Positions 20,512-59,354 of a stretch of 64,000 nucleotides of DNA are shown piece by piece; the first letter of the stretch is position 1; the number at the start of each line of letters is the position of its first letter. Made by a program: the position numbers and the translations under genes. Source of the DNA: Armatimonadota bacterium (GTDB lineage Bacteria > Armatimonadota > Hebobacteria > GCA-020354555 > CP070648); contig DATLAK010000171.1 in assembly GCA_035527535.1 (NCBI GenBank), forward strand, positions 7,638 through 71,637. Reading direction: 5' to 3'. The notes beneath the pieces were generated by a model. The model was not told the origin of the DNA. It worked only from the letters and a program-made list of their open reading frames with translations, and did no database searches.

Positions 20512-20584
20512 CGCCAGCAGCAGGAATCGCGCTCGGCGGAGAGGAAATCTCCAGCCGGACCTGCCTCTCCGGTCGGACGCCTCG

Positions 20585-42960: not shown

Positions 42961-43446
42961 TCAGCGCCTCCGGCGCGCCGCGGGCTTGCCCTTGTGCCAC
43001 AAGCCCGGCATCATCTGGCGCGCTTCGCCGGTGCGCTCCAGCTCCGCCAGCTCACGCTGCGCCTCCGACTGCTCCACCCCCAGGCGCAGTCCGATGTCGT
43101 GCGCGGTCGCCACCACGTGAGGATTGCGCTCCAGGAAACGGCGCACCAGCGCGCCCCCGCCGCCCTGCCCCTTGGACCCCTGTGCCGGCTCCGTCCCAAC
43201 CTCGTCGTGGAGCGCCCGGCGACTGCGAATACAGCCCTTGGGAATGATCGCCCCGTAGTTGTTGGGGGAGTCGCGCCGGCCGCTCAGGTCCACGTCATCC
43301 GCCAGCACCACATATTCGGGCGTTTCCCGGATGACGAAACCAACCGACACCTTGAACAGCCGCTGCGCTTCGAAATCCTGGTCGAGGGTGAAACGGGAGA
43401 CGATGGTCACGTCCTCCCACTCGATCGCCTCAAGGCGCCACGCCAT
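42961..43446 (-). CDS. hypothetical protein (161 aa), possible C-terminal winged-helix
   Basis: Isolated ORF on - strand with Gly-rich linker and basic C-terminal tail; no confident domain. Confidence 0.4.
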   Translation of the reverse strand: MAWRLEAIEWEDVTIVSRFTLDQDFEAQRLFKVSVGFVIRETPEYVVLADDVDLSGRRDSPNNYGAIIPKGCIRSRRALHDEVGTEPAQGSKGQGGGGALVRRFLERNPHVVATAHDIGLRLGVEQSEAQRELAELERTGEARQMMPGLWHKGKPAARRRR

Positions 43447-43904
43447 GGTCCGCTCCTGCCGGCGAGCGCTCGCCTGCTCAAATGCGAAACGTCCCCCACT
43501 TGCTTCGGGGGACGTTCATCATGCCCGTGACTGCTGTCTTACCCACGGCTTCGATTCCATCCGGTGATGACGCAGGCACCCGCAGTGTACCATAGCCCCA
43601 CCCGGCCGTCAATCGTCAGCCCATGCTCCACAGGAGCTCCGGTTCGCGCCGATTGCGCGCGGTGGCGTTGGCGGGTGCCCGAAAGCCCGGGCCCTGTCGC
43701 CCCGCAGGACAAGCCACAAGGAGTTTGACCCCGCGGAAGGGAAACATGGATAGTAAAGCGGCACAGGCGCGGTCTCCGGCCAGCAGCACGCAGTCGGCAG
43801 TGGCCTGAGCAGGCCGGGGAGGGCGCGATGGTGCCGCATCTTCTTGCCCCGGACGGTGCCAGCGACCCAGCGACGCCGGGGCGAGGGACCTATGGGAGGC
43901 GGTA

Positions 43905-45980
43905 ATGGGTACCGAGGTCGAGCCCCAGGCCCCATGCCTGGCGGCGTGTCCGGTGCACACCGACACGCGCGGCTACGCTGAATGCATCGCCGAGGGACAC
44001 TACGAGGAGGCCCTGGACCTGCTGCTGGCGGCCAACCCTTTCACCTCCGTCTGCGGGCGCATCTGCCATCACCCCTGCGAGCAAAGCTGCCGCCGCGCCC
44101 AGGTTGACGCCCCGGTCGCGCTGCGCCAGCTCAAGCGCTTCGTGGTCGAGGCGACCGGCGACTATCGCCAGCGCCGCCGCGCCCCGGTCGAGCATACGCG
44201 CTGCGAGCGCATCGCTATCATCGGCGCCGGCCCCGCGGGCCTCACCGCCGCCCACGATCTGGCGCGCGCGGGCTTCGGGGTGACCGTCTTCGAGGCTGCC
44301 GACACGCCGGGCGGGATGCTGGGGCAGACCATCCCCCGCTATCGGTTGCCCTACGCGGTGCTGCGCGAGGACATTGACGACATCCTGGCGCTGGGGGTGG
44401 AGCTGCGCACCCGGTGCGCCGTCGGCAAGGAAGTCCAGCTCGCCCAACTCCAGCGGGACTTTGACGTCGTGCTCATCGCCACCGGGTTGAGCGAGAGCCG
44501 CGCCCTGGGGGTGCCGGGGATTGACAGCCGTGGGGTGCTGCTGGCCTTGCCGTTTCTGCGGGCGGTGGCCGCCGGCCGGCCGCCGGCGCTGGGGGAGCGG
44601 GTGGTCGTGATCGGCGGCGGCAACGTCGCCATGGATGTCGCGCGCTCGGCGCGGCGGCTGGGGGCGGGCGAGGTGACGGCGGTTTCACTGGAGTCGCGGA
44701 AGGAGCTGCCGGCCTGGGACTGGGAGGTGCAGGAGGCGCTGGAGGAAGGCGTCAAGCTGGCCCCGTCGTGGGGCCCGCAGGAGGTGCTGGCCGAGGACGG
44801 CGCCGTCACCGGCATCGTCCTCAAGCGCTGTGTGCGCGTGTTCGACGAGCAGGGCAAGTTCAGTCCGTCGTTTGACGACAGCGAGACGACCGAACTGCCG
44901 GCCGACAGCATCGTCCTCTCCATCGGGCAGCGGGCGGATCTGGCATGCGTGGAGGGATCGCAGGTCGCCACCCGCCCGGGCGACCGGCTCCAGTACGATC
45001 CGGAAACGATGGCGACCTCCGAGCGCGGCGTCTTCGCCTGCGGCGAAGTCGTCACCGGCCCGGGGGCGGCGGTGGAGGCGGTGGCGGACGCGCATCGCGC
45101 GGCGCGGGCGATCTCGCATTTCCTGGACACCGGCGAGCTGCTGCGGCAGGCGCCCAAGGAGGAGTTGCCGGCGCTGAGCGAGCTGCCGGACGACGTGCTG
45201 CGGCGCGTACGCAGCCGGGGGCGCGTCGAGGTGCCGCTGACGCCGGCCGAGGCGCGCGTGCGTGATTTCTCCGAGTTCGAGCCGTGCTTCTGCGAATCCG
45301 AGGCCTGCGCCGAGGCGCGCCGGTGCCTGGCTTGCACCGCCGGGGCGGTGCCGGACGAGGAGCGCTGCGCCGCCTGTCTGACCTGCGTGCGGGTGTGTCC
45401 GTTCGGCGTCGCCACGGTGACCAGCACGGCGGCCATGCCGGCGGAGAAGTGTCAAGCCTGCGGCCTGTGCGCGGCGGTATGCCCGGCAGCGGCGATCGCG
45501 CTCAAGCGCTTCGACCCCGACCGCCTGGGGAGCGAGCTTCAGCACCTGGTGGGGGCTCTGGAGGCGGCGGCGCCGCCCACGCTGGTGGTGTCGTTCGGCT
45601 GCCTGTTTGCCACTACCAGTCGGCGCTTGCTGGAGCAGACCGCGCAGGAGGTCAAGGACACCGGCGTGGCACGGGTGGTCGTGCCGTGCGTGGCGCGGCT
45701 AAGCGTGCCGGACCTGCTGAAACCGTTCGAGATGGGCGCCGCCGGGGTGTGCGTCATCGCCTGTGCCGAGGGTGACTGCGCCTATCCGACCGCCGACGAG
45801 CAGTTGGCGATGAGGGTCGAACAGGTACGGCGCATCTTGGACGAGTTGGGCCTGGGCCGCGAGCGGTTGGAGCTGGCGCGGACGGTGGGGACGGCCGAGG
45901 CCTCCTGGCCCACCATCTGGGATGACTTCAAGACAAGGCTCGAGCGCGCCCCGGTCGAGCAAAGAGGCGAGGCAGAATGA
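43905..45980 (+). CDS. multidomain flavoprotein: GltD/NfnB-like NAD(P)H-dependent FAD oxidoreductase + 2x[4Fe-4S] ferredoxin domains + MvhD (methyl-viologen-reducing hydrogenase delta) domain
   Basis: GltD N-terminal Fe-S region CLAACPVHTDTRGY...CGRICHHPCEQSC, FAD site IAIIGAGPAGLTAAHDLARAGFGVTVFEA, NAD(P)H site VVVIGGGNVAMDVARSA, ferredoxin CxxCxxCxxxCP x2, MvhD-like LVVSFGC...VVPCVARLSVPDLLKPFEMGAAGVCVIACAEGDCAY. Confidence 0.75.
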   Translation: MGTEVEPQAPCLAACPVHTDTRGYAECIAEGHYEEALDLLLAANPFTSVCGRICHHPCEQSCRRAQVDAPVALRQLKRFVVEATGDYRQRRRAPVEHTRCERIAIIGAGPAGLTAAHDLARAGFGVTVFEAADTPGGMLGQTIPRYRLPYAVLREDIDDILALGVELRTRCAVGKEVQLAQLQRDFDVVLIATGLSESRALGVPGIDSRGVLLALPFLRAVAAGRPPALGERVVVIGGGNVAMDVARSARRLGAGEVTAVSLESRKELPAWDWEVQEALEEGVKLAPSWGPQEVLAEDGAVTGIVLKRCVRVFDEQGKFSPSFDDSETTELPADSIVLSIGQRADLACVEGSQVATRPGDRLQYDPETMATSERGVFACGEVVTGPGAAVEAVADAHRAARAISHFLDTGELLRQAPKEELPALSELPDDVLRRVRSRGRVEVPLTPAEARVRDFSEFEPCFCESEACAEARRCLACTAGAVPDEERCAACLTCVRVCPFGVATVTSTAAMPAEKCQACGLCAAVCPAAAIALKRFDPDRLGSELQHLVGALEAAAPPTLVVSFGCLFATTSRRLLEQTAQEVKDTGVARVVVPCVARLSVPDLLKPFEMGAAGVCVIACAEGDCAYPTADEQLAMRVEQVRRILDELGLGRERLELARTVGTAEASWPTIWDDFKTRLERAPVEQRGEAE

Positions 45981-46702
45981 TTGTAGCGGAAGCAAAGTCA
46001 CTGAGTGAGGTCGAGGGGTTCGTCCGGCAGTACAGCAAGGTCCTGGTCGTGGGCTGCGGGGAGTGCGTGACCGTGTGTCACGCGGGAGGTGAGAAGGAAG
46101 TCAAGACCGTCGCCGGCGCGCTGCGCATCGCCGCGCGCCGGGACCAGCGCGCGCAGGAGCTGGTGGAGGACTGCGTCACGCGCCAGTGCGAGCCGGAGTT
46201 CGTTCAGCCGATCATCGAGCTGGTGGAGCGCGAAGGCATCGCCGCCGTGCTGTCGTTGGCCTGCGGGGTCGGCGTCAACTTCCTGGCCGAGCGGCTGGGC
46301 GAGGTGCCGGTGTTTCCGGGGGTGGACACCAAGTTCTACGGCGCGTGCACCGAGCCCGGGGTCTGGGCCGAGATGTGCGCGGGCTGCGGCGAGTGCGTGC
46401 TGCACCTGACGGGAGGGATTTGTCCCGTCGCGCGCTGCGCAAAGTCCATCCTCAACGGCCCGTGCGGGGGCAGCAACCAGGGCAAGTGCGAGATCAGCCC
46501 CGACGTGGACTGCGCCTGGGCGCTGATCATCGAGCGCATGCGGAAGCTGGGTACGCTCGACCGGTTAGCGGAGCTGACGCCGGCGCGGGACTGGTCGCAC
46601 TCGGCGCACGGCGGACCGCGCCGGGTGGTGCGCGAGGATCTGCGCCAGATCGCGGTCGAGGGTGAGGAAACGGCGGAAAAGGAGAGCGTGGCGGCATCAT
46701 GA
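45977..46702 (+). CDS. metV: methylene-tetrahydrofolate reductase C-terminal-domain protein MetV (zinc-ribbon-like)
   Basis: MTHFR_C-type Cys pattern VVGCGECVTVCHAGG ... CAGCGECVLHLTGGICPVARCAKSILNGPCGGS ... CEISPDVDCAW; start overlaps upstream gene. Confidence 0.75.
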   Translation: MIVAEAKSLSEVEGFVRQYSKVLVVGCGECVTVCHAGGEKEVKTVAGALRIAARRDQRAQELVEDCVTRQCEPEFVQPIIELVEREGIAAVLSLACGVGVNFLAERLGEVPVFPGVDTKFYGACTEPGVWAEMCAGCGECVLHLTGGICPVARCAKSILNGPCGGSNQGKCEISPDVDCAWALIIERMRKLGTLDRLAELTPARDWSHSAHGGPRRVVREDLRQIAVEGEETAEKESVAAS

Positions 46703-47688
46703 ACAGCGGCAGCAACCTGGAGCGGGTGTTGGCGGCGGGGCATTTCGCGGTGACCGCGGAGATCGGCCCCCCCATGGACTGCAACGCGGAGGTGGTGCTG
46801 GAGAAGGCGCGCCTGCTCAAGGGCTACGCCGACGCCTTCAACATCACTGATTGCCAGACCGCGGTGGTGCGCATGTCGAGCCTGGCCTCGGCGGTGCTCA
46901 TCATGCGCGAGGGGCTGGAGCCGGTGCTGCAGATGACCTGCCGCGACCGCAACCGCATCGCCATCCAGGCCGACCTGCTGGGGGCGGCGGCGCTGGGGAT
47001 TCGCAACTGCCTGTGCATCGCCGGCGACCATCAGTCCTTCGGCGCCGCCGGCAGACTCAAGGGCCACCCCGGCGCCAAGAACGTCTATGACGTGGATTCC
47101 ATCCAGCTGGTGTCCATTCTCAAGGGCTTGCGCGACGACGGCCGCCAGCAGGGCGGGGACGAGATCGAGCTGCGACCGCCGTTCTTCATCGGCGCGGTGT
47201 GGACGCCCATGGGCGACCCCATTGACTTCCGGCCGCTGCGCCTGGGCAAGAAGGTCGCGGCCGGCGCCGATTTCATCCAAACCCAGGGCGTCTACGACAT
47301 GGACCTCTTCCGGCAGCAGATGGCGCGCGCCCGCGACCTGGGGCTGCACGAGCGGACGGCCCTTCTGGCCGGTATCATCGTCCCGCGCAACCTGGGGATG
47401 CTCAAGTACATGGACAGCGCGGTGGCGGGGGTGAGCGTGCCCCAGGAGCTCATGCAGCGCATGGCCCGGGCGCGCGACGCTGCCGGCGACGACAAGCAGC
47501 AAGCGCGGGGCAACCAGGAGCAGGAGGGCATCCGCATCAGCGTCGAGCTGATCGAGCAGGCGCGGGAGATCGAGGGCGTGCGCGGGGTGCACCTCCAGGC
47601 CATCGAATGGGAGCGCAAAGTGCCCGAGATCGTGGAGCATGCGGGGCTGCTGCCACGCCCGGTCGTCGCCCCTGAGTGCGGGGGGTGA
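46699..47688 (+). CDS. metF: 5,10-methylenetetrahydrofolate reductase MetF
   Basis: MTHFR TIM-barrel motifs: FAVTAEIGPP, NITDCQTAVVRMSSL, LQMTCRDRNRIAIQADLLGAAALGIRNCLCIAGD. Confidence 0.85.
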   Translation: MNSGSNLERVLAAGHFAVTAEIGPPMDCNAEVVLEKARLLKGYADAFNITDCQTAVVRMSSLASAVLIMREGLEPVLQMTCRDRNRIAIQADLLGAAALGIRNCLCIAGDHQSFGAAGRLKGHPGAKNVYDVDSIQLVSILKGLRDDGRQQGGDEIELRPPFFIGAVWTPMGDPIDFRPLRLGKKVAAGADFIQTQGVYDMDLFRQQMARARDLGLHERTALLAGIIVPRNLGMLKYMDSAVAGVSVPQELMQRMARARDAAGDDKQQARGNQEQEGIRISVELIEQAREIEGVRGVHLQAIEWERKVPEIVEHAGLLPRPVVAPECGG

Positions 47689-47700
47689 ACGACCGCGGAT

Positions 47701-47728
47701 GTAGGGGCAAGGGATGCCTTGCCCCTAC
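47701..47728 (+). terminator. perfect 12-bp stem hairpin 13 nt after metF stop
   Basis: GTAGGGGCAAGG-GATG-CCTTGCCCCTAC. Confidence 0.5.
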
Positions 47729-47841: not shown

Positions 47842-47852
47842 GACCATTTGAG

Positions 47853-47882
47853 TGACTGCTCACTTTCGAAAGTGAGCAGTCA
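47853..47882. promoter_or_regulatory. perfect 30-bp palindrome: putative TetR operator overlapping the transcription start
   Basis: TGACTGCTCACTTTC|GAAAGTGAGCAGTCA, immediately downstream of the -10 and 30 nt upstream of tetR ATG 47912. Confidence 0.6.
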
Positions 47883-47911
47883 CATCACCTCGCGTTCACG
47901 AGAGTGCTGAC

Positions 47912-48397
47912 ATGAGTCGGAAGATAGAACCGAATCAGCGCTGGCGGCGTGCAGAGGAGCGCCGCGCCCAGATCATGGAGGCAGCGATCCGGCTCTTCGC
48001 CCGTCAGGGCTTCGCCCGGACTACGACCAAAGAGCTCGCCCGTGAGGCTGGTATCTCTGAGGGTACCATCTACAAGCACTTCGCCGGCAAGCAGGACATC
48101 CTCTTTGCGTTCATCGAGCGCGAGGCCACCGCGCGTGTGAGGGCACTGCTGCAGCCCCCGCAGGCCGACGGCGACGAGCCCTTCCGCCGGTTCTTCCTCG
48201 ACCGCTTCTCCACCGCCGCGCAGCCCCTGCCCCTCTTGAAGGTCATTATCGGAGAGGTGCTTTTCGACGAGGAGTTCGCTCGCCGATATGCCGAGGTGGC
48301 CAGGCCTAGGCTGGCACTCCTCGAGAAGAGGATCGCCGAGCACACGCGGGCAGGGCAGTTTCGGCAGTCGACACTAAGCTCGCCGCAGGGGCGCTGA
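47912..48397 (+). CDS. TetR/AcrR-family transcriptional regulator (apparent frameshift near 48360; remainder of ligand-binding domain continues in another frame to 48558)
   Basis: HTH RRAQIMEAAIRLFARQGFARTTTKELAREAGISEGTIYKHF; after ...GQFRQ the TetR C-terminal continuation VDTKLAAGALIGLFLMVGVILPTVLPDEM...LLDGVRRH is in the +2 frame ending TGA 48556-48558. Confidence 0.7.
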   Translation: MSRKIEPNQRWRRAEERRAQIMEAAIRLFARQGFARTTTKELAREAGISEGTIYKHFAGKQDILFAFIEREATARVRALLQPPQADGDEPFRRFFLDRFSTAAQPLPLLKVIIGEVLFDEEFARRYAEVARPRLALLEKRIAEHTRAGQFRQSTLSSPQGR

Positions 48398-48554: not shown

Positions 48555-49778
48555 ATGAGAAGGCGACCATCCCCATGGCTCGCTGCTGGGGCACTGCTCT
48601 TGCTCGGGGCCGCCGCGGCGGCGGTTTGGCATGTGCGGGCCGGCCGTGAGCAGCCACCTTCGGACCGGCTCTTCGGGAACGGCACCGTCGAGGCGACCGA
48701 GGTGGACGTAACCACGCAGACGCCTAGCAAGCTGATCTCCTTGACGGTGCAAGAGGGTGACCGGGTGCGGGCGGGTCAGCGCATTGCGTCGCTCGATGCA
48801 GCGGCTCTGGACACCCAGGTGGCGCAGGCGCAGAGCGCGGCCCAGACGGCGGAGGCGCAGCTCGGGGAACTGCAGGCCGGCAGTCGTCCGCAGGACATCG
48901 CTAGCGCGCGGGCGCAGTACGAGGCGGCGGTGAATGCCAAGGACCAGGCGAAGGCGCGTCTCGATCTCGTGAGGGCCGGCCCGCGCCGGGAGGACATCGC
49001 CCAGCTCCGCGCCGGCGTGCGTCAGGCGCAAGTGACGCTCGACTACGCGGAGACAGAGCTTGGCCGGGCGACGCGCCTGGAGGTGAACGGTGCGGTGGCG
49101 CGCCAGCAGGTGGATCTGGCGCGCACGCAGCGAGACACCGCGGCCGCGCAGTTGGATGCCGCGCGGCAGCGGTTGCTGGAGGCCGAGCGCGGCTCCCGCC
49201 AGGAGGACATCCGCATCGCCCGCGCCGCATTGCAGCAGACCGAGTCGCAGGTGAAGGCGGCCAGGGCCACCCTCGATCTCGCCCTCGTCGGTCCCCGCCG
49301 CGAGACCATCGCTGCCGCGCAGGCCCGCGTCGCGCAAGCCAAGGCCGCCGTTGAGACGGCACGCGTGCAGCAGAGCTATGCGGCCATCACTGCCCCTATG
49401 GATGGCACCGTGACCTTGCGCAACCTCGAGCCCGGCGATTTCGTCTCCCCGGGCACGCCCATCGTCCGGGTCGCCGCGCTTGACCACGTGTGGCTGCGCG
49501 CCTACGTCTCGGAGACAGACCTGGGACGGGTGAAGCTCGGGCAGTCTGCCGAGGTGAGGAGCGATACGTACCTGGGGAAGGTGTACCGCGGCCGCGTCAT
49601 CGAGATCTCCCAGGAACCCGAGTTCACCCCCAAGAACGTGCAGACCAAGGAGGAGCGCGTGAAGCTCGTGTTCGGGGTGAAGATCGAGGTGGAGAATGCG
49701 AACCAAGAGTTGAAACCGGGGATGCCCGTGGACGCCTCCATCCTGGTGGGCGCGCCGCTCCAGAAGGCGAGCCGCTGA
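48555..49778 (+). CDS. HlyD-family periplasmic adaptor (membrane fusion protein)
   Basis: N-terminal TM, long coiled-coil hairpin (Q/A/R-rich repeats), C-terminal beta-barrel ...VRSDTYLGKVYRGRVIEIS...; ATG overlaps tetR-continuation stop. Confidence 0.85.
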   Translation: MRRRPSPWLAAGALLLLGAAAAAVWHVRAGREQPPSDRLFGNGTVEATEVDVTTQTPSKLISLTVQEGDRVRAGQRIASLDAAALDTQVAQAQSAAQTAEAQLGELQAGSRPQDIASARAQYEAAVNAKDQAKARLDLVRAGPRREDIAQLRAGVRQAQVTLDYAETELGRATRLEVNGAVARQQVDLARTQRDTAAAQLDAARQRLLEAERGSRQEDIRIARAALQQTESQVKAARATLDLALVGPRRETIAAAQARVAQAKAAVETARVQQSYAAITAPMDGTVTLRNLEPGDFVSPGTPIVRVAALDHVWLRAYVSETDLGRVKLGQSAEVRSDTYLGKVYRGRVIEISQEPEFTPKNVQTKEERVKLVFGVKIEVENANQELKPGMPVDASILVGAPLQKASR

Positions 49779-49786
49779 GGAGCGCG

Positions 49787-50728
49787 ATGGACCAGCCGCT
49801 TGTCTCCTCAGCCATCCGCGCTTCGAGTCTGCGCAAACGCTTCGGCGAAGTGACGGCCGTGGACGGCCTCGCCCTCCAGGTTGCGCCGGGCGAGATCTTC
49901 GGCCTGGTCGGACCGGACGGCGCGGGGAAGACGACCACGATTCGCATACTCTGCGGCATTCTCGACGGGGACGGCGGAGAGGCGGAGGTGGCCGGCTTCG
50001 ACGTGCGCCGCCGGCCCGAGCAGGTAAAGCAGCGCATCGGCTACATGCCTCAGCAATTCAGCCTCTACGGAGACCTGACGGTGGCGGAGAACCTGCTCTT
50101 CTTCGCCAACATCTACCACGTGCCGAAAAGGGAGCGGCTGCGACGGGAGCAGGAGTTGCTCGAGTTCAGCCGGCTGGCACCATTTCGCACCCGCCTGGCC
50201 CAGCATCTCTCCGGAGGCATGAGACAGAAGCTGGCGCTCGCCTGTACGCTCATCCACCGGCCGCAAGTGCTCTTTCTCGACGAGCCGACCACCGGCGTCG
50301 ATCCCGTGTCCCGCCGTGATTTCTGGAAGATCCTCTACTCCCTCCTCCGAGAGGGCATGACGCTGTTCATCAGCACGCCTTACATGGACGAGGCGGAGCG
50401 ATGCAATCGGGTGGCCCTCATCAGCAAGGGGCGGATTCTCCAGTGTGATACGCCGGAGGCCCTGCGGCAGCAAATGCGCGGCGACCTGCTGGAGATCGTC
50501 GCGGAGCCCCAACGCCAGGCGAAGGCAACGCTGTCGGAGCGCCCGGAGGTGCTGGGCGTGCAGGTCTTCGGTGACCGCTTGCACGTGTGGGTGTCCGACG
50601 TGGCGCGGGACGAGCCCGCGCTCCTCTCCGTGCTGGGCCAGCACGGCGTCCTGGTACGTTCCTCGCGCCGCGCGGCTCCCGGCCTGGAGGACGTGTTCGT
50701 GTCGCTGGTATCGGAAGGGGCGCGATGA
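49787..50728 (+). CDS. ABC transporter ATP-binding protein (first NBD of a YbhF-like pair)
   Basis: Walker A GPDGAGKTTT, signature LSGGMRQK, Walker B LFLDEPTTGVD; ATG 49787 with RBS GAGGAG; ORF-track start 49490 overlaps hlyD. Confidence 0.85.
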   Translation: MDQPLVSSAIRASSLRKRFGEVTAVDGLALQVAPGEIFGLVGPDGAGKTTTIRILCGILDGDGGEAEVAGFDVRRRPEQVKQRIGYMPQQFSLYGDLTVAENLLFFANIYHVPKRERLRREQELLEFSRLAPFRTRLAQHLSGGMRQKLALACTLIHRPQVLFLDEPTTGVDPVSRRDFWKILYSLLREGMTLFISTPYMDEAERCNRVALISKGRILQCDTPEALRQQMRGDLLEIVAEPQRQAKATLSERPEVLGVQVFGDRLHVWVSDVARDEPALLSVLGQHGVLVRSSRRAAPGLEDVFVSLVSEGAR

Positions 50729-51693
50729 GCGGGATGGCGAACGGCGAACCGGCGGTGGCGGTCGAGAACCTGGTGAAGAGGTTCGGCAAGTTCCTGGCGG
50801 TGGACCGGATCTCGTTCTCCTTGCCCAAAGGGGAGGTCTTCGGCTTCCTGGGACCCAACGGCGCGGGCAAGTCAACGACCATTCGCATGCTCTGCGGCCT
50901 TCTCCTGCCGACCTCCGGCCGGGGCCGCGTGGTCGGCTACGACGTGATGACGGAGTCGGAACAGATCAAGCAGCGCATCGGGTACATGAGCCAGAAGTTC
51001 TCCCTCTACGGGGACCTGACGGTCGAGGAGAACATCGAGTTCTATGCCGACGTGTACGGCGTTCCCCTGGGGCGCATGGCCGAACGCAAGTCCTGGATTC
51101 TCCGGATGGCGGACCTCCAGGATCGCACGAAGAGTCTCACCCGCGAGCTGGCTGTCGGGTGGAAGCAGCGACTCGCCCTGGGTTGCGCGGTCGTCCACGA
51201 GCCGCAGGCGCTCTTCCTCGATGAACCGACGGCAGGTGTGGATCCGGTGTCGCGGCGCACGTTCTGGGACCTGATCTACACCGTCGCCGGGCAGGGGGTG
51301 AGCGTGTTCGTGACCACACACTATATGGACGAGGCGGAGCACTGCGACCGGCTGGGGCTGATCTACGGCGGCAAGCTGATCGCTCTCGGCGCCCCGGCCG
51401 AACTGAAAGCACAGGCCGCCTCCGGGGTCCTGTTGGAGGTCTCCGCGCGCCCGCTGATGGAGGCTCTGGGCGTGTTGGAGACCGACCCCCGCGTGGGCGA
51501 CGTCGCCGTGTTCGGGAGCAACCTCCACGTGGTCGTGCCGGACGAGCCGCAGCCCGCGGCGGTGGTACGCGCCGCGCTCACCAACGCCGGCCTGTCCGTC
51601 ATCAGTGTGGAACCCATTCTGCCGTCGCTCGAAGATGTTTTCGTCTCGTTGATCGAGCGCGCCGACCGGGAGGCGCGGGAGGTTACGAGCTAG
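50725..51693 (+). CDS. ABC transporter ATP-binding protein (second NBD)
   Basis: Walker A GPNGAGKSTT, signature (LAVGWKQR, degenerate), Walker B LFLDEPTAGVD; ATGA overlap with upstream gene. Confidence 0.85.
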   Translation: MSGMANGEPAVAVENLVKRFGKFLAVDRISFSLPKGEVFGFLGPNGAGKSTTIRMLCGLLLPTSGRGRVVGYDVMTESEQIKQRIGYMSQKFSLYGDLTVEENIEFYADVYGVPLGRMAERKSWILRMADLQDRTKSLTRELAVGWKQRLALGCAVVHEPQALFLDEPTAGVDPVSRRTFWDLIYTVAGQGVSVFVTTHYMDEAEHCDRLGLIYGGKLIALGAPAELKAQAASGVLLEVSARPLMEALGVLETDPRVGDVAVFGSNLHVVVPDEPQPAAVVRAALTNAGLSVISVEPILPSLEDVFVSLIERADREAREVTS

Positions 51694-51696
51694 GCT

Positions 51697-52830
51697 ATGC
51701 TGCTGCGCACCTGGATGATCGCCTGGAAAGAGTCCCTCCAGATCCGGCGCGACCCGCGCACGCTGCTGGTGGTAATCGCGCTGCCCGTGCTCATGCTGGT
51801 CCTGTACGGATACGCCTTCAACCTGGATGTGAAGCATCTGACGCTGGCCGTCTACGATCAGGATCACACCCGGGCCGGGCGCGACCTGATAGGCGCCTTC
51901 TCTCACAGCGAGTACTTCGATCTCGCGGGCAGCCTGACCAGCTACCAGGAGGTGGAATCCGCGCTCGACCGGGGCGAGGCGAAGGTCGCTCTAATCATCC
52001 CGGCCCGGTTCGGCACCGAGCTGGCTTCGGGCCGGCCTGCCCCCGTGCAGGTGATCATCGACGGTTCCGACTCCACCACCGCGAGCACGGCGATTGGCTA
52101 CGCCGCGCTGGCGGTACAGCAGTATTCCCGGCAGGTCACCGTTGAGGCCTTAAGGCGGGCCGGCCTGCCCGGGGACAGCGGGCTGGGCCCGCTCGATATG
52201 CGGGGACAGGTCTGGTACAACCCGGAGCTGCGCAGCACCAACTTCCTGGTGCCGGGTCTGATCGCAGTCATCTTGAGCATGCTCGCGGCCTTGCTTATCT
52301 CCATGACCGTGGCGCGGGAACGGGAACGCGGCACCATCGAGCCGTTAATCGCTTCGCCGGTGATGCCCCACGAGCTGATGCTGGGGAAGCTTCTGCCGTA
52401 TGCGGCGATCGCCTTCGTGGATATCGTCCTCGTCATCCTGGCCGGGCTGCTGCTTTTCCACGTGCCGCTCAGGGGCAGCCCCTCCCTGCTGCTCGGCCTG
52501 TCCGCCCTTTTCCTGCTGACCTCACTGGCGATCGGCCTGCTGATCTCGACCGTCTCCACCAGCCAGCAGACAGCCATGACCGTGGCCATGCTCGTCACCC
52601 AGCTCCCCGCCATGTTGCTCTCCGGCTTCGTCTTCCCCATCCGGGCCATGCCCCCGGTCCTACAATGGATCACGAACTTCGTCCCCGCCCGCCACTTCCT
52701 GGTGATCGTGCGTGGGATATTCCTTAAGGGAATCGGGATCTCGATTCTGTGGGAGCCGGCGTTGATTCTGCTGCTGTACAGCGTGGCCTTGATCGGGCTC
52801 TGTTCGTTTCGATTCCGGAAGAAGTTGTGA
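51697..52830 (+). CDS. ABC-2 type transporter permease
   Basis: N-terminal TM then large extracytoplasmic loop then 5 TM; ABC2_membrane pattern (...LLVPGLIAVILSML...). Confidence 0.85.
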   Translation: MLLRTWMIAWKESLQIRRDPRTLLVVIALPVLMLVLYGYAFNLDVKHLTLAVYDQDHTRAGRDLIGAFSHSEYFDLAGSLTSYQEVESALDRGEAKVALIIPARFGTELASGRPAPVQVIIDGSDSTTASTAIGYAALAVQQYSRQVTVEALRRAGLPGDSGLGPLDMRGQVWYNPELRSTNFLVPGLIAVILSMLAALLISMTVARERERGTIEPLIASPVMPHELMLGKLLPYAAIAFVDIVLVILAGLLLFHVPLRGSPSLLLGLSALFLLTSLAIGLLISTVSTSQQTAMTVAMLVTQLPAMLLSGFVFPIRAMPPVLQWITNFVPARHFLVIVRGIFLKGIGISILWEPALILLLYSVALIGLCSFRFRKKL

Positions 52831-52839
52831 GGCGCGGCG

Positions 52840-53961
52840 GTGAACTGGCGACGCGTCCTGCGCATCATCAAGAAAGAGTTTCTCCAGTTGCGCCGCGATC
52901 CGCGACTGCTGCGGATGGTGGTGGTGGCGCCCGTGCTCCAGCTCATCCTCTTTGGCTACGCGGTCACCACGGATGTCCGCCACGTCAGCATGGCCGTCTA
53001 CGACGAGGACCACACGCCGGCCAGCCGCGCCCTCGTCGCCCGCTTCGTTCACTCCGGGTACTTCGACCTGGACCGATGGGTGACGCGCCCGGATCAGATT
53101 CAGCCGCTGCTCGATGCCAGCGCGGTGCAGGTGGCCGTGCACATCCCGCGGGGGTTTGCCAAGGATCTTGCGCGGGGGCTTCCTGCCGCGGCGCAAGTCA
53201 TCCTCGACGGCTCCGACTCGACCACCGCCGGTATCATCTCCGGCTACGTGGCGGGTGTGGCCGCGACCTACTCGGGCCAGATAGAGGTGGCTCGGATCGG
53301 TCGCCTTGCTCCACTTCCACGCGTCGAGAGCCGGCTGCGCGTCTGGTACAACCCAGAACTCAAGAGCGTCAACTTCATGGTCCCCGCCGTGCTTTGCATG
53401 ATCCTCCTCAACACGACGATGATGCTCACCTGTCTTGCCATCGTGAAGGAGCGAGAGATCGGGACGCTGGAGCAACTCGTCGTGACGCCAATCACCGCCC
53501 GCGAACTGATGGTGGGCAAGACGGTTCCCTTTATCGTGATCAGCTTCGTTGACGTGGTGCTGGTGCTCCTGGTCTCCTCACTCTGGTTTCGCGTGCCAAT
53601 CGCGGGGAGCCTGATGCTGTTGTTTGCGCTGGCCGCGCTGTTTCTACTCACCAGCCTCGGATCCGGCCTCTTCATCTCCACCATCTCGCACACTCAACAG
53701 CAGGCGATGATGACCGCTTTCTTCTTCATGTTCCCCTCCTTCATTCTCTCGGGTCTGATCTTCCCGATCGAGAACATGCCGCGGGTGATCCAATGGGTCA
53801 CCTACGCAATCCCGCTCCGCTACTTCCTGACCATCGTCCGCGGTATCTTCCTGAAGGGAAGCGGCCTGGACGTCCTCTGGCCGCATGTGGTCGCGCTCGC
53901 GGTCTTCGGCCTCGTCATCATGATGCTGAGCGTGGCGCGCTTCACGAAGCGATTGGGGTGA
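52840..53961 (+). CDS. ABC-2 type transporter permease (paralog of the preceding gene)
   Basis: Same architecture and ~40% identity by eye to 51697-52830 (e.g. VWYNPELKSVNFMVPAVLCMIL vs VWYNPELRSTNFLVPGLIAVIL); GTG start. Confidence 0.85.
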   Translation: MNWRRVLRIIKKEFLQLRRDPRLLRMVVVAPVLQLILFGYAVTTDVRHVSMAVYDEDHTPASRALVARFVHSGYFDLDRWVTRPDQIQPLLDASAVQVAVHIPRGFAKDLARGLPAAAQVILDGSDSTTAGIISGYVAGVAATYSGQIEVARIGRLAPLPRVESRLRVWYNPELKSVNFMVPAVLCMILLNTTMMLTCLAIVKEREIGTLEQLVVTPITARELMVGKTVPFIVISFVDVVLVLLVSSLWFRVPIAGSLMLLFALAALFLLTSLGSGLFISTISHTQQQAMMTAFFFMFPSFILSGLIFPIENMPRVIQWVTYAIPLRYFLTIVRGIFLKGSGLDVLWPHVVALAVFGLVIMMLSVARFTKRLG

Positions 53962-53964: not shown

Positions 53965-54100
53965 AGAGTCTTCTCCCACCACCGCGGGGCGAGCTCGCGG
54001 CTTAGCCTCGCTTCGGAACTGGCCAGGTGGGCTTTCGGCAGTAGGTTGGTGCGCAGCAGGTGGGCCAGCGTAGCCGCGTCAGTCTTATCGGTCTTGATGC
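53965..54100 (-). pseudogene. IS110-family transposase internal fragment (~45 aa)
   Basis: RIKTDKTDAATLAHLLRTNLLPKAHLASSEARLSRELAPRWWEKTL matches the conserved KTDk.DA..LA.llr.g.l..vwvP.....lR.L.R.R segment of IS110 DEDD transposases; no start, no catalytic region. Confidence 0.5.
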
Positions 54101-54346
54101 GGGCGCTGGTCGGCACGGTTTCTCCAGACCCGCGCATCTTCACCCGCCGAGGCGGGATAGCGCAAGCCCGGAGGGAGGCCAGCCTTCGCATGACATCAAC
54201 TGCAACATCGAGCCCACCTCGCCAGGTTCCGATACATCAAGTTGCAGGTGCACCAAAGAGCTTCGTACATTAGCGCAGGGCGAATACAAACCCGATTCGA
54301 GTTCAGTTCTGGGCTTCTTCTGCCCTGGCCTGATACACGAGCTTCT

Positions 54347-54553
54347 CTAGATCGTCGCCTTGGGGCGGGACTTGTCATCTTCGCGTCGCCGCGGTTGCTC
54401 GATCTGGGGTATCGTTGGGGCTAGATCGGGCGCTGCACCCCGCTGTTTCAAGACGAGCAGGTGCAGCAGGTCAACACGCTTCTCCAGTTCCGCGATCCGT
54501 CCCTCCAAGTATGCAATCCGTTGCGCCAGTTCCTGGAACATAGATTCCTCCAT
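54347..54553 (-). CDS. small coiled-coil protein (68 aa), hypothetical
   Basis: MEESMFQELAQRIAYLEGRIAELEKRVDLLHLLVLKQ... heptad pattern; lies in the low-GC island; weak evidence. Confidence 0.25.
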   Translation of the reverse strand: MEESMFQELAQRIAYLEGRIAELEKRVDLLHLLVLKQRGAAPDLAPTIPQIEQPRRREDDKSRPKATI

Positions 54554-54750
54554 CGTTGGCTATCCAAAGTCGTTCCTGTCGCCGATCCGTCGTCTAGTAT
54601 TCCGCGCGTGCTGTCGCCCATCCTGCCGCATGTATGTCGCCCGTAAGCCATGCGCCGTTCGGCTTTCGTTATTGCAGCGTCGGCCGCCATGATGAAGGAA
54701 CTGCGCAGTTTGTGTGGTTCACGAAGCGGCAGAGCCGGTCAGACTGGCGA

Positions 54751-55787
54751 TTAGCCCCACCGCCGTCTCTTTGGCGCGGGTGTCGGAGTGGAGATAGTTG
54801 GCGGTAGTTTCGAGGTCGGCGTGGCCGAGGAGTTCTTGGACGGTGCGGACGTCCACGCCGTTGCGCACGAGGTGGGTGGCGAAGGTGTGGCGGAGTGGCT
54901 AGGCCGCCAGGCCGCCATGGCGGTCGCGGCGCGACTTAGCCACTTATGAACCGTGATGCGCTGGCCGGCCAAGCCTGCCCGCTCCACCAGTCGGCGCACG
55001 ATGCGATGGATGCGAGCGCCGTTTATCGGCTGGCCCCACATCTGGCTGATGAAGAGGTGGCCGCTCTGCGTCGGCCCGCGCCAAGCCACGCTTGTCCGCC
55101 GCCAGGTGAGATATTCCATGATTGCCTCGACCACCTCAGGTGTTAACGGCACCACCCGCTCCTTGTTACCTTTGCCGCGCACGCGCAGTTGGCAATACTC
55201 CAGGTCACCCTGATCCAGCACGATGCCGGCAGCCTCGCTGCGGCGCAAGCCGGTTGAAAGCAAGAGCAGGACCAATAGCCTGCGGTCAGGAGTCTGTGCC
55301 GCCGCCAGCAGTTGGTGCACCTGCTCGGCGGACAGCACGGTGGGCAGATTCCTCGCCACCTTGGGTAGAGGCAGTCTGCGGGCAGGGTTGCCCTGGCAAT
55401 GGCCCATGTGGCTCTGCCATCCCGTTGGGAGGGCAACGCCATCTCAGAGGGATCCTGGAGGAAGGAGAAGAACGACGAGAGGCAGCCATACTTGCGGCGG
55501 ATCGTGAGCGGCTTCATACCGGTTAGCTTCAGCCCCCAGGCGACCACCTGCGGGCGGGTGATCTCCGCGGGCGCGGGCACGCGGCCTCCCTGCTCAAGCA
55601 GGAACTCCTGGAACTCGCGCAGGTCAATGCGATAGGCCCCGACCGTCCACGGCGAGTAGTGGCGGTAGCCCTGCAGGTACGACAGAAACTTCGAAACCGC
55701 GGCGTCGAAGGCGCTGCCCTCCTCGGCCCCTGTATTCTGCTCAGATGCGTCCGGAAAGTCCGGATTCTCCGCCGCCTGCGTGACCAT
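54751..55787 (-). pseudogene. tyrosine site-specific recombinase/integrase (XerC/XerD-like), disrupted by two frameshifts and an in-frame TAG
   Basis: N-terminal SAM-like domain (FLSYLQGYRHYSPWTVGAYRIDLREFQEFL...ITRPQVVAWG), core (LSTGLRRSEAAGIVL...LRVRGKGNKERVVPL), then catalytic [39 protein letters not shown] only in a shifted frame after TAG. Confidence 0.7.
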
Positions 55788-56029
55788 GCGTGACCTCTCC
55801 TGTAACCCACGTTCTGTCGCCTACATAGGTCACTCGAAGCCAGCCAGAAGTCAAGCGAGATTCGAGGCAATCCTTGCGCGCGGTGGCCCACAGGAAAGAG
55901 CCTTGCGAAGGAAGGCGATGTGGCCGCTGCTTGGAGCCGATTGGGGATAGCTCGGGGGGCAAGCCACGTGGGAATCGCGCGGGCGCCGGCAGGGGCCTTT
56001 TCCGGCGATCATGTATTGTCTATGGCCAC

Positions 56030-57916
56030 TCAAACGCCATCCGAGGAGTCGATGCCCAGTTGGCGGTCAACCTCCGTGACCGGGTTGCAGCCCTTGTCGA
56101 GGCGGATTGGGAACCCGGTGGAAGGAAGGACGGCGGAGTTTAGATGGATCGTTAGTCGGGGTTGCCCCGAGTCTCCGGCGCTCGGTTCAAGACGGAGCAG
56201 GGACGCCTTGTCCGATAGCAATCTGAGCGCGAGCTGGTTAAGTTGCTCGGGGGTCGTGTCCTTGCATAGGACCGCGAGGGCCGGCGCGGACACGGCCAAA
56301 AGAAGTTCACGTAGGGCTTCCCTCTCATCGATCGACTGGACGCGCGCTGCAAATCTAAGTGCGCGGAGAGCATCGGCGTACTGCGCCTCAAGAAGCGCAC
56401 TATCTGCCTGCGCAAATGTCGTTGCCTCAACGAGCGCTTCGCCAGGCTTCCCTGCGGCGGTTCGGGCATCCACGGTTCCATAGTAGCACTCGATGGTGCC
56501 CCTTCGAAAAACAAAGCACCCGGCAGTCTCAAGGAAATCAAGTAAGGCGGTGACCCTGTCGTATATCGCGACCCACTGTACGGTGTTGGACATTGAAGCT
56601 CGTTCGGCGGCTGACATGCTCATGAGGGCCGCGAGAGCTGCGCGCCTCTTCTGCGCCACCTCGTTCTTAGTGGGGTCTCGAAGCTGCCAGTACGGGTGCT
56701 GCTCGGCGTGGGGTGCTATGTCGTGCCATTGAGCATCGGCCAAGTGGCAGAAATCACCGTGCACTGATGCCGCGAACGCGTGCGCATCGGAATAGCCCTT
56801 GGCATTGGCGGCTTTCGCAACAGAGGAGTCGCTTGCGTAGACGCTGACAAGGTCGAGGCCATCGGCGATGGCATCGACATCTGCTAGGACGATGGGTGAC
56901 TTGCCGATGAGCTTGAGTAACTTTGCTACGATGGGCATTCGCCCTTTGCCCATCACAGGTACAAGTTGGGCTCCTGTCGGCGCGAGGTAGAGGCTGAGTC
57001 GGTTGTCCAACTCTGTGCAGATGAAGGCATCACTTGGGCCTTCGACAAGCAGGGGTCGCGCACAGAAGAACGCCAACTTGTGTGCGTGACTCAAGTGCGG
57101 GAGAAGAGCGCGTAGTTGGGCGTTTTTCAGCTCGGGCCTTTCGGGACTCACTTGGATGGGGGGACGATCTGGATCGCAGCAGAAGACTATGCTTGCCACG
57201 TCTTCGGGGCGCCTGATATCAATCATCTCGGTGGAGTGTGTCGCGATGAACACGAGCTTCTTGCCAGGGGTACTCGGATCGCCTGCAACCTCACGAATCT
57301 CGCGAAGCAAGAACGCTTGAAGTTGGGGGTGGAGGGAGACTTCCGGCTCGTCTATGAGGAGCGCGGCGACCTCGTCATCATAAAGGGCCGCCAAGAGCAC
57401 CACCAGCTGCAGCAGTCCGCTCGCCTCTCGCGCCACTGAGTAGGGCGGATGGGACGAGTCCAGCCTTACGAATCTCACCCTCAGCCTGCCTTCGTCCCAG
57501 TCGAGAAGAACGTCACGATTGAAGAGCCTACGGAGTCGCTCCGCGATTTTGATCTGCAGGTCAGCTCGGAAGCTGAGCGTATGAAAGTCCCCCGTCACGG
57601 CCTCACTGAGATGCCGTCTATCGCGCAACTTCCTCCCGCCGAAAGCTGCCTCATCGTAGTTCAGTGAATCTCCTCTGCTCCCGTCCCAATCCGAGCGGTA
57701 TTGCTCGACGGGCGCGGAACGGCCGGCCGACAAGAAATGGACTTTGCCTTGCGCGACAAGCGGACGGACCGCCGACTTAAGTGCCCGAAGGACTTGAGTC
57801 TTCCCCGAGCCATTGGGGCCGACAAGCGTGGTGAGGCCCCCATAGACAGTGATGCTCGAAGTAGCGGCCCCAGGCACCTCCCTTATCTCGCACTTCAGTT
57901 CAAATGGAAAGTTCAC
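56030..57916 (-). CDS. OLD-family (overcoming lysogenization defect) ATP-dependent endonuclease: N-terminal ABC/AAA_21-type ATPase + C-terminal Toprim domain
   Basis: Walker A GPNGSGKTQ, Walker B/D-loop LLIDEPEVSLHPQLQ, H-loop FIATHST; Toprim motifs LVEGPSD and ~40 aa later LADVDAIADG; 628 aa, similar size to P2 Old / Gabija GajA. Confidence 0.75.
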   Translation of the reverse strand: MNFPFELKCEIREVPGAATSSITVYGGLTTLVGPNGSGKTQVLRALKSAVRPLVAQGKVHFLSAGRSAPVEQYRSDWDGSRGDSLNYDEAAFGGRKLRDRRHLSEAVTGDFHTLSFRADLQIKIAERLRRLFNRDVLLDWDEGRLRVRFVRLDSSHPPYSVAREASGLLQLVVLLAALYDDEVAALLIDEPEVSLHPQLQAFLLREIREVAGDPSTPGKKLVFIATHSTEMIDIRRPEDVASIVFCCDPDRPPIQVSPERPELKNAQLRALLPHLSHAHKLAFFCARPLLVEGPSDAFICTELDNRLSLYLAPTGAQLVPVMGKGRMPIVAKLLKLIGKSPIVLADVDAIADGLDLVSVYASDSSVAKAANAKGYSDAHAFAASVHGDFCHLADAQWHDIAPHAEQHPYWQLRDPTKNEVAQKRRAALAALMSMSAAERASMSNTVQWVAIYDRVTALLDFLETAGCFVFRRGTIECYYGTVDARTAAGKPGEALVEATTFAQADSALLEAQYADALRALRFAARVQSIDEREALRELLLAVSAPALAVLCKDTTPEQLNQLALRLLSDKASLLRLEPSAGDSGQPRLTIHLNSAVLPSTGFPIRLDKGCNPVTEVDRQLGIDSSDGV

Positions 57917-58120
57917 GGTGTCAGTGCCTCCTGGTGACCGACAGACTCAGGGGCGCGCGATCCGGCCGCTTAGGGCGATACGGGCACTTGACGGCTTGTT
58001 GCCGCCCCTGAGCCATTGTAGGTTGAGGCTCCGCTGCTGTCAACGCGAACAGGCCCTTCGGACCGTCGATCACGTGATTCGCTGTGCGCGACGATGGTCG
58101 GAGCAAGCCGGTCGAGGAAT

Positions 58121-58169
58121 GGGCCTGTAATGCGGCAACTGTCGCGTGCCGGGAAAGTGATGAGAACGG
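58121..58169. repeat. ~50-bp motif copy A, ~200 nt upstream of the OLD-family gene
   Basis: GGGCCTGTAATGCGGCAACTGTCGCGTGCCGGGAAAGTGATGAGAACGG; 26/28 identical over the first 28 nt to copy B and ~75% over the rest. Confidence 0.6.
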
Positions 58170-58193
58170 TTCCGCGTCCGGTTTGAGTTCTGC

Positions 58194-58985: not shown

Positions 58986-59303
58986 GTGACCAGGAGACTA
59001 TACTCGTTTCGCCCGGCTGCTATCAAGGCTTCTCGTGGTGCGGGGCGTAATGTCGAGCCTGTTGAAATGTCCCGTAGGTCACTTCCCAATAGGAGAGGAT
59101 TGAGGCGGGGGAAGACAGCTGGTGCGGGCCTTGTGCAATTCATGGCAACAGCGCGTGAGCGAAATCCGCCGTATGGTTTCCGATTCGTCGTCCATAGGCC
59201 GTTTCACCCCGACTCTTGGTAGCCGCCGCTGGTCAGTCGAATTGGTCAAGGACTCCAGCGGAGTTCTGGGCGGAATCTTCGGACTGCAGAATGGCCGAAA
59301 AGC

Positions 59304-59354
59304 GGGCCTGTAATTCGGCAACTGTCGGGTGTTGTGCGGAATGACGACAAACGG
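59304..59354. repeat. ~50-bp motif copy B, ~320 nt upstream of the 263-aa gene; partial third copy at 59511-59525
   Basis: GGGCCTGTAATTCGGCAACTGTCGGGTGTTGTGCGGAATGACGACAAACGG; partial GGGCCTGTAAGCCGG at 59511. Confidence 0.6.

Follow-up and report, generated by a model that had tools for sequence, protein, structure and literature searches.

Methylenetetrahydrofolate reductases (MTHFRs) have been classified into four types, I–IV, and the electron donor of the MetVF-type enzymes, together with energy conservation in this exergonic step, has been a long-standing open point in Wood–Ljungdahl bioenergetics (PMC8760232, PMC9430772); models of ATP yield hinge on both. In type III, the RnfC2–MetVF enzyme of Acetobacterium woodii, a MetVF core is served by one dedicated NADH-oxidising iron–sulfur (FeS) flavoprotein subunit, and the enzyme is soluble and non-bifurcating (PMC8760232). 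In type IV, the HdrCBA–MvhD–MetVF enzyme of Moorella thermoacetica and Sporomusa ovata, the HdrA subunit of M. thermoacetica has a GltD domain that binds [4Fe-4S], flavin adenine dinucleotide (FAD) and NAD(P)H (PMC9430772) and is the site of NADH oxidation (PMC9430772; PMC8760232). Here we report a three-gene operon from an Armatimonadota bacterium, carried on a 64,000-nucleotide stretch of contig DATLAK010000171.1 (“the window,” meaning that whole stretch), in which MetV and MetF follow a 691-aa flavoprotein that fuses a GltD/NfnB-type FAD module, a ferredoxin domain and an MvhD domain (“the fusion”; Table 1). A preliminary description of this DNA could assign the operon to no characterised complex, and its layout indeed falls outside all four types (PMC8760232). 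The layout is uncharacterised, though all of its parts are known and its logic is familiar; it is also widespread, occurring in numerous phyla of anaerobes, and misannotated. Its three products probably form one soluble, linear NADH:methylene-tetrahydrofolate (methylene-THF) oxidoreductase complex built on a MetVF core.

The composition given in the preliminary description, MetV–MetF behind a GltD/NfnB-type FAD enzyme joined to ferredoxin and MvhD, proved exact in its coordinates and agrees with Pfam and NCBIfam. In the fusion, Pfam recovers Fer4_20 at aa 8–84 (2.7e-16), Pyr_redox_2 at aa 102–396 (2e-32), a Fer4 dicluster at aa 482–532 (~1e-5) and FlpD/MvhD (PF02662) at aa 585–680 (3.7e-18), and two NCBIfam models match its C-terminal part (VhuD, and HdrA2, NF040770, at aa 481–667). 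MetV carries PF12225 at aa 113–207 (6e-36) and MetF carries PF02219 at aa 7–316 (5.4e-31) as well as the MTHFR part of NCBIfam PRK08645; the Pfam E-values for all three proteins lie far past chance level. The two ferredoxin modules described earlier are ferredoxin in content and one in number, a single 2×[4Fe-4S] domain; another two [4Fe-4S] clusters are to be expected in the GltD part. As expected of a MetVF-type MTHFR, MetF is a TIM-barrel protein (with matches to the PDB MTHFRs 1v93, 3apt and 6fcx) and the adjoining metV gene ends 4 nt inside metF; methylene-THF reduction is its predicted activity. No MetV homologue was found among the solved structures in the PDB.

All three open reading frames (ORFs) have a third-codon-position GC content (GC3) of 0.89–0.93, which marks them as real genes despite the many spurious ORFs of this ~70% GC window. 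The fusion/metV and metV/metF junctions each consist of a 4-nt ATGA stop/start overlap and these overlaps, together with the single Shine–Dalgarno sequence and promoter-like site upstream and the hairpin downstream, indicate one transcription unit.

What the fusion is made of can be read from a Moorellaceae locus of type IV layout (L046), which encodes HdrC, HdrB, a 1493-aa HdrA, MvhD, MetV and MetF. Fusion aa 10–498 are 45% identical to the GltD domain within this HdrA and aa 481–541 are 52% identical to its extreme C-terminal ferredoxin domain (tblastn), from which it follows that the fusion corresponds to a type IV system's GltD domain, its C-terminal ferredoxin domain and its MvhD. These matches bear out the earlier view that an NfnB-like flavoprotein stands in HdrA’s place. 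The homology of the fusion’s ferredoxin domain to the C-terminal ferredoxin domain of HdrA is also seen with PDB HdrA chains (match at 573–650), and MetV and MetF of the window are 55 and 51% identical, respectively, to those of the Moorellaceae cluster. L046 belongs to a second group of loci, which encodes a GltD-like part (aa 10–498, 40–46% identity) followed ~2.5 kb later by MvhD, MetV and MetF.

The operon shares with type IV its MetVF core, the placement of an MvhD element immediately 5' of metV, the use of a GltD-type FAD/NAD(P)H domain as nucleotide site (as in Moorella HdrA) and an HdrA-type C-terminal ferredoxin domain beside MvhD. Unlike type IV, however, it lacks HdrB, HdrC and all of HdrA's thioredoxin-reductase-like flavin modules, at which bifurcation is proposed to take place, and a single 691-aa GltD–ferredoxin–MvhD chain stands where type IV has a ~1490-aa HdrA and a separate MvhD. 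The absence of HdrABC, noted earlier for the operon itself, extends to the surroundings: tblastn with Moorellaceae queries and Pfam analysis of flanking genes revealed HdrB or HdrC homologues neither upstream of the operon nor elsewhere in the 64 kb, and the flavin modules of HdrA were not found in the window, where the HdrA query matched only the ferredoxin domain of the fusion, through its own last 63 residues. The operon can be seen as a natural deletion experiment on the Moorella-type complex, with the NADH domain, ferredoxin domain and MvhD kept and the HdrA flavin modules and HdrBC dropped.

Related recombinations of these modules are known. HdrA2-type HdrA–MvhD fusions (Methanosarcina) have a C-terminal ferredoxin domain fused to MvhD in the same order, and HdrL, an HdrA/GltD fusion of Desulfobacterium autotrophicum, shows that recombination between GltD and Hdr modules takes place in sulfate reducers (PMC2702500). 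Unlike both, the window fusion has no HdrA thioredoxin-reductase core; moreover, HdrL genes precede a separate mvhD, with hdrL1 followed by dsr genes and not by metVF. The literature searched yielded the type I–IV scheme, the GltD-containing HdrA of Moorella, HdrL and the HdrA–NfnB fusions of anaerobic methanotrophic (ANME) archaea, and it contained no description of a compact fusion linked to MetVF; two papers outside that search, Jiao et al. (2021) on the Wood–Ljungdahl pathway of actinobacteria and Mock et al. (2014), could mention the layout.

In the complex that we propose, the fusion would be the NADH-oxidising input subunit, consisting of the GltD-type FAD module, the ferredoxin domain and the MvhD domain. 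The hydride of NADH would pass to the FAD of the GltD-type module, and electrons would then leave singly through the two [4Fe-4S] clusters of that module—a proximal one with Cys15, Cys54, Cys58 and Lys77 as putative ligands, and a distal one with Cys11, Cys62, Cys474 and Cys477—before moving on by way of the two [4Fe-4S] clusters that sit in the HdrA-type C-terminal ferredoxin domain and reaching the [2Fe-2S] cluster of the fused MvhD domain. MvhD would dock onto MetV, whose FeS clusters would deliver electrons to the MetF flavin, and MetF would reduce 5,10-methylene-THF to 5-methyl-THF. Such a chain would be linear, with a single flavin entry point and no co-reduction of ferredoxin. Driven by NADH, the reaction is exergonic by ~23 kJ/mol (E0' −320 vs. 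−200 mV; PMC8760232, PMC6295475). We propose that this enzyme matches type III RnfC2–MetVF in function and is by descent a type IV enzyme that lacks HdrBC and HdrA's thioredoxin-reductase modules. With type III it shares the MetVF core and one dedicated NADH-oxidising FeS flavoprotein subunit, but the input modules are unrelated: that of A. woodii is RnfC-like with flavin mononucleotide, whereas that of the window is GltD-like with FAD, an HdrA-type ferredoxin and MvhD. Pfam analysis of the operon and its flanks gave no RnfC-type domain, the sole third gene of the operon being GltD-like.

The residues that such a chain would need are strongly conserved. The N-terminal FeS domain of the fusion holds Cys11, 15, 50, 54, 58 and 62 as well as Lys77 and is predicted, together with Cys474 and Cys477, to bind two [4Fe-4S] clusters (ligands assigned after C108, C147, C151 and K170 of Csac NfnA; PMC11829005). 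In an alignment of 27 fusion homologues, C50, C54, C58, C62, K77, the FAD and NAD glycine motifs, L262-E263, C474, C477, all eight ferredoxin Cys and the MvhD-domain residues C566, C595, C620 and C625 are invariant, and C11 and C15 are kept in ≥90% of sequences. The last four align with Cys of solved MvhD chains (9sw2_D, 9sfi_K, 7bkb_F, 5odc_D), so that the MvhD-like region does retain candidate Cys ligands, as the preliminary description needed it to, while of the six Cys of MvhD it has lost two, the first and third of CCxxC. The predicted roles of the MvhD domain are binding of a [2Fe-2S] cluster and docking to MetV.

Conservation extends from the residues to the gene neighbourhood. A search of 5.8 billion proteins returned >120 full-length relatives of the fusion with 53–96% identity and the same Pfam architecture, named members of which come from Armatimonadota (~70%), Planctomycetota, Latescibacterota, Spirochaetota, Zipacnadales and the cultured Desulforhabdus amnigena, where the fusion–MetV–MetF order is conserved. 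A scan of GTDB species representatives gave 79 loci, 44 of them with a full-length compact fusion and 37 of these evaluable (i.e., with ≥1.5 kb of downstream sequence). MetV and/or MetF lie directly downstream on the same strand in 30/37 evaluable loci, from ~10 phyla and at 35–68% identity: Candidatus Hebobacterum (Armatimonadota), Syntrophobacterales (D. amnigena among them), several classes of Actinomycetota, Dehalococcoidia and Anaerolineae (Chloroflexota), Nitrospirota (Thermodesulfovibrionia), Nitrospinota, Brocadia and other Planctomycetota, Desulfobacterales and Spirochaetota. The best match to the window fusion among these representatives is 68%; in Hebobacterum the fusion is 67–68%, MetV 72% and MetF 85% identical to the window proteins. 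At least seven loci of Actinomycetota (L010, L012, L014, L016, L023, L028 and L033; context by Pfam for L012 and by tblastn) show the order AcsB–AcsD–fusion–MetV–MetF–(CooC)–AcsE. This position inside the CO dehydrogenase/acetyl-CoA synthase cluster identifies the trio as the Wood–Ljungdahl MTHFR of those loci.

Some loci depart from the simple arrangement. In Brocadiaceae bacterium S225 (L042:7001–10132), MetF follows the fusion and MetV is not detectable, and in two Brocadia loci (L036, L039) 1–1.7 kb of low-GC3 ORFs lie between MetV and MetF. A Desulfobacterales metagenome-assembled genome (MAG), CSMAG_2677 (L056:2918–11675), encodes HdrC–HdrB–HdrA–MvhD, then the compact fusion and then MetV–MetF, and carries further MetV and MetF copies; it is possibly an intermediate between the compact and Hdr enzyme types. 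Four MAGs of Bacillota/Syntrophomonadaceae (L018, L020, L022, L031) have a ~40% identical fusion homologue alone (match at ~7001–9000) in a housekeeping neighbourhood conserved among them, in the order PPDK regulator–PPDK–fusion–DnaG–RpoD, with no MetVF within 7 kb.

The preliminary description left the nucleotide as NAD(P)H. The dinucleotide site stands (G237-G-G-N in the fusion), and the L262-E263 motif narrows the prediction to NADH at the expense of NADPH. Where beta-2 of the second Rossmann fold ends, Y-R-R is found in four NADPH-dependent structures (NfnI, StnC and NfnA(Bfu)) and S-L262-E263 in the fusion. The usual rule for Rossmann folds is that the ribose hydroxyls of NAD are bound by an acidic residue in this place and the 2'-phosphate of NADP by Arg residues. 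Based on this rule and on the NADH activity reported for Moorella HdrA, the fusion is predicted to use NADH rather than NADPH. Among the 79 loci, x-L-E occurs in 58 and Y-R-R in 15, and the Moorellaceae HdrA has C-L-E. Y-R-R is kept in the compact fusion–MetVF loci L027, L030, L034, L035, L038, L041, L043–L045, L047 and L056. This subgroup (Thermodesulfovibrionia, Nitrospinota, some Brocadiia, Desulfobacterales and Actinomycetota) is predicted to use NADPH, and the fusion family thus appears to have NADH- and NADPH-type branches. In a midpoint-rooted neighbour-joining tree of the GltD parts (rough, no bootstrap), the “LE” and “YRR” clades are apart, and compact and Hdr-fused forms interleave. 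With the two forms interleaved in an unsupported tree, a single origin of the compact form was set aside and no evolutionary direction is drawn.

The nearest characterised relatives of the GltD module are non-bifurcating. The fusion matches 9bov_A (NfnA of the C. saccharolyticus NfnABC) at 337 bits, 8oh5_C (StnC) at 295 bits, 9n5u_A (T. sibiricus NfnA) at 284 bits and NfnB/NfnL (4ylf_B, 5jca_L) at 218–226 bits, and Foldseek ranks the structural matches in the same order (NfnB TM-score of 0.77–0.79 normalised to NfnB length). Fusion aa 438–477 align to residues 7–48 of P. furiosus NfnI-L, i.e., the N-terminal 40 residues of NfnB/GltD, and to residues 518–567 of 9bov_A and 527–566 of StnC. On these alignments, the GltD fold of the fusion is circularly permuted in the style of StnC and NfnA(Bfu), its RCxxC segment coming after the flavin domains, which explains why the N-terminus of the fusion lacks the first CxxC; the segment would supply the two cluster ligands missing there. 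Lys77 (L-K-R-F) aligns with Lys170 of both StnC and Csac NfnA, a ligand of the FAD-proximal cluster, at a position where bifurcating NfnB has Glu (L-E-R-F in 4ylf_B and 5vj7_A); Lys is found there in 76/78 loci. In StnC and NfnA(Bfu), the GltD FAD lies at one end of the chain, where electrons enter without bifurcation (PMC10482914, PMC11829005). Lys77, the permuted RCxxC segment and the best matches to 9bov_A and 8oh5_C together favour the linear, non-bifurcating type.

Neither relative is a full counterpart of the fusion. StnC (of S. ovata StnABC, 8oh5) and the Bfu-type NfnA (9bov, 9n5u) are closest in fold and sequence (33–40% identity) and share the circular permutation, the Lys at the proximal-cluster ligand position, two [4Fe-4S] clusters and FAD. 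However, their domains are inserted in a NuoG/FdhF-like transhydrogenase subunit and use NADPH (Y-R-R), whereas the fusion has S-L-E, keeps Cys50 and carries ferredoxin and MvhD domains serving MetVF; Pfam found no NuoG/molybdopterin domain in the fusion and no HydB/HydC-like neighbours in the operon and flanks. With NfnB (NfnL) of NfnAB/NfnSL the fusion shares the GltD fold, FAD, two [4Fe-4S] clusters, Cys50 and the FAD-N5 arginine, and it differs in its Lys for the Glu ligand, its replaced Arg-Arg NADPH motif, its permuted topology and the lack of an NfnA/PyrK-like partner, no gene for such a [2Fe-2S] and FAD protein being found by Pfam in the operon or flanks.

Several points nonetheless weigh against a linear, NADH-fed complex. 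Complex formation and the MvhD–MetV contact are proposed from gene order alone. The AlphaFold2 model of the fusion has a per-residue confidence (pLDDT) mostly >85 over aa 102–396 and <50 in every cluster-binding FeS segment. The anchor for NADH is a Moorellaceae homologue, not the assayed M. thermoacetica protein itself. The invariant C50 is present in NfnB and absent from StnC and NfnA(Bfu), and with this residue kept, cluster ligation in the fusion may differ from that in StnC. The FAD-N5 arginine (R147 in the fusion) is kept in bifurcating and non-bifurcating relatives alike, so sequence cannot decide bifurcation, and in NfnB the GltD fold bifurcates by itself. The remaining points concern loci: seven, mostly from Bacillota, have the fusion without MetVF nearby, and in L056 an HdrCBA–MvhD set lies directly upstream of the compact fusion, so that fusion and Hdr can coexist; Hdr is possibly encoded elsewhere in the present genome as well.

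The points on C50 and R147 bear on whether the enzyme is an electron-bifurcating MTHFR, in which the GltD FAD would act like the b-FAD of NfnB. Two NADH would be oxidised, with high-potential electrons flowing through the ferredoxin domain, MvhD and MetV to methylene-THF and low-potential electrons through the other [4Fe-4S] pair to free ferredoxin. Such an enzyme has long been postulated for type IV (PMC8760232), and the homology of the GltD module to NfnB (226 bits), the conserved R147, the NfnB-like C50 and the two separate [4Fe-4S] pairs, which could form two exit branches, are consistent with it. Yet the proximal-cluster ligand is Lys as in StnC/NfnA(Bfu) and not the Glu of NfnB, the permuted topology is that of the StnC type, whose structures place the FAD at the end of a linear chain, and by analogy with HdrA–MvhD the ferredoxin domain and MvhD would lie in series with no second branch. 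The HdrA flavin modules, moreover, are exactly the part that is absent. We regard a bifurcating enzyme as unlikely; the bifurcation suggested in the preliminary description keeps some probability and is disfavoured by Lys77 and the permuted RCxxC segment. It is quite unlikely, too, that the compact GltD–ferredoxin–MvhD/MetVF enzyme is a minimal, self-contained bifurcating MTHFR that uses its GltD FAD as NfnB does. If it were, the reaction would be 2 NADH + methylene-THF + oxidised ferredoxin → 2 NAD+ + methyl-THF + reduced ferredoxin, methylene-THF reduction would be an energy-conserving step, and such an enzyme would also occur in anammox bacteria, Actinomycetota, Armatimonadota and sulfate reducers.

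The coexistence seen in L056, and the fact that the visible part of the genome is 64 kb, raise the question of whether the fusion does no more than supply the NADH-input subunit to a larger, type IV-like Hdr complex whose HdrA and HdrBC are encoded elsewhere in the genome, as MetF, MetV and MvhD genes are often not co-localised with hdrABC (Poudel et al., PMC6085437). Among compact MetVF loci, however, L056 is the only one with HdrB/HdrC in its flanks (≤7 kb each side; some contigs shorter) and with Hdr adjoining the compact fusion, and the Hdr-free loci include the acs-embedded ones, a setting in which type IV organisms keep hdrCBA adjacent. With an MvhD and a ferredoxin domain of its own, the fusion also leaves no obvious docking role for HdrA, the usual receiver of MvhD. 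A dispersed Hdr complex is in our view distinctly improbable.

Finally, fusion homologues that stand alone between ppdK and dnaG–rpoD in Bacillota are what would be expected if the 691-aa protein were a stand-alone oxidoreductase, of NADH:ferredoxin type or with another acceptor, next to an ordinary, ferredoxin-fed type II MetVF; purified type II MetVF does work with reduced ferredoxin in vitro without a third subunit (PMC8760232). The translational coupling by ATGA overlaps and a linkage that holds in 30/37 evaluable loci at such low identity argue against independent neighbours, as does the end of the upstream gene: in type IV, mvhD always lies immediately 5' of metV, and here MvhD is the C-terminal end of the gene in that position. 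We consider this explanation highly improbable.

Read as a linear NADH:methylene-THF oxidoreductase, the operon is a fifth widespread MTHFR layout, with a likely electron donor that can be read from sequence, and at three genes and ~3.8 kb it is small enough for heterologous expression. In present annotations, fusion proteins go under the names “FAD-dependent oxidoreductase,” “glutamate synthase beta subunit-like,” “formate dehydrogenase beta subunit” or “hydrogenase iron-sulfur subunit.” A screen in which MetF, MetV and MvhD together count as a bifurcating Hdr-type enzyme (PMC6085437) would misclassify the compact one, and this affects how metabolism is reconstructed for Armatimonadota, Actinomycetota, anammox Planctomycetota and sulfate reducers. 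As for the organism itself, the closest named relatives are Armatimonadota MAGs, Hebobacterum included, and the class Hebobacteria has been described as one of putative acetogens with a complete Wood–Ljungdahl pathway in 7/13 MAGs (PMC10290634). No Wood–Ljungdahl genes were detected in the 64-kb window by tblastn for AcsB, AcsD, AcsE and CooC and by Pfam analysis of all GC3-supported ORFs, and the enzyme may serve acetogenesis here or merely methionine/one-carbon anabolism.

Table 1. Features of the fusion–metV–metF operon, in window positions.
Feature	Position	Strand	Basis
Gene 1, 691-aa fusion flavoprotein	43905–45980	+	ORF, translation, Pfam/NCBIfam
Gene 2, MetV, 241 aa, Cys-rich FeS/Zn subunit of MetVF-type MTHFR	45977–46702	+	Pfam PF12225
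Gene 3, MetF, 329 aa, flavin-containing catalytic MTHFR subunit	46699–47688	+	Pfam PF02219
N-terminal FeS domain of the GltD fold, aa 8–84	43926–44156	+	Fer4_20, alignment to StnC/NfnA/NfnB
FAD and NAD(P)H Rossmann domains, aa 102–396	44208–45092	+	Pyr_redox_2
Circularly permuted segment, aa 438–477, ending R-C474-L-A-C477	45216–45335	+	Alignment to structures
2×[4Fe-4S] ferredoxin domain, aa 482–532; Cys488/491/494/498 and Cys516/519/522/526	45348–45500	+	Pfam Fer4 families
MvhD/FlpD domain, aa 561–680	45585–45944	+	PF02662, NCBIfam, alignment to MvhD structures
Promoter-like site, TTGACC and GATAGT with an 18-nt spacer, within the 458-bp divergent intergenic region that precedes the operon	43725–43754	+	Consensus match only
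Shine–Dalgarno sequence GGGAGG, 5 nt ahead of the ATG at 43905	43894–43899	+	Read from sequence
Perfect 12-bp stem with 4-nt loop, 13 nt past the metF stop	47701–47728	+	Read from sequence

The promoter scan upstream of the fusion gave 2 sites vs. 0.1 expected in shuffles. The hairpin behind metF likely marks where the operon ends on its 3' side; lacking a T tract, it was missed by a consensus terminator scan that requires a T run. An Rfam search of the whole window found no riboswitch or other RNA element at gathering thresholds, with only noise (E > 0.5) in 43400–43960, and the window has no tRNA genes.

The opposite strand upstream of the operon encodes a domainless 161-aa protein, an HtrA-like protease, a sulfatase and a GH94 phosphorylase; downstream is a TetR–HlyD–ABC-2 efflux operon. 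Housekeeping and envelope functions make up the rest of the window, with genes for ClpC, RadA, IspDF, HPF, glycerate kinase, FolE2, two aconitase-family proteins, malate/lactate dehydrogenase and glycosyltransferases. The FolE2-type GTP cyclohydrolase IB (20258–21379) lies 22 kb upstream of the MTHFR operon beside a PAS–GAF histidine kinase; this enzyme serves the synthesis of pterin/folate or queuosine precursors. At 5425–6393, between a solute-binding protein gene and a permease gene, a 322-aa ORF joins half an ABC_membrane domain to no more than the final third of an ABC_tran ATPase domain, and may represent a gene that is degraded or mis-framed. Toward the 3' end of the window (~54000–64000), GC drops from ~0.70 to 0.60–0.66 over an N-terminal integrase fragment (55143–55787, −), an OLD-family AAA/TOPRIM nuclease (56030–57916, −), a PIN-domain protein (59947–60528, −), a DNA N6/N4 methylase (62842–63972, −) and two domainless ORFs (263 and 522 aa), a region that looks like a mobile or defence island. 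A perfect 32-bp palindrome at 47852–47883 (halves GTGACTGCTCACTTTC and GAAAGTGAGCAGTCAC), 29 nt upstream of the TetR-family gene (47912–48397), is probably the TetR operator of the downstream HlyD/ABC-2 efflux operon (48555–53961).

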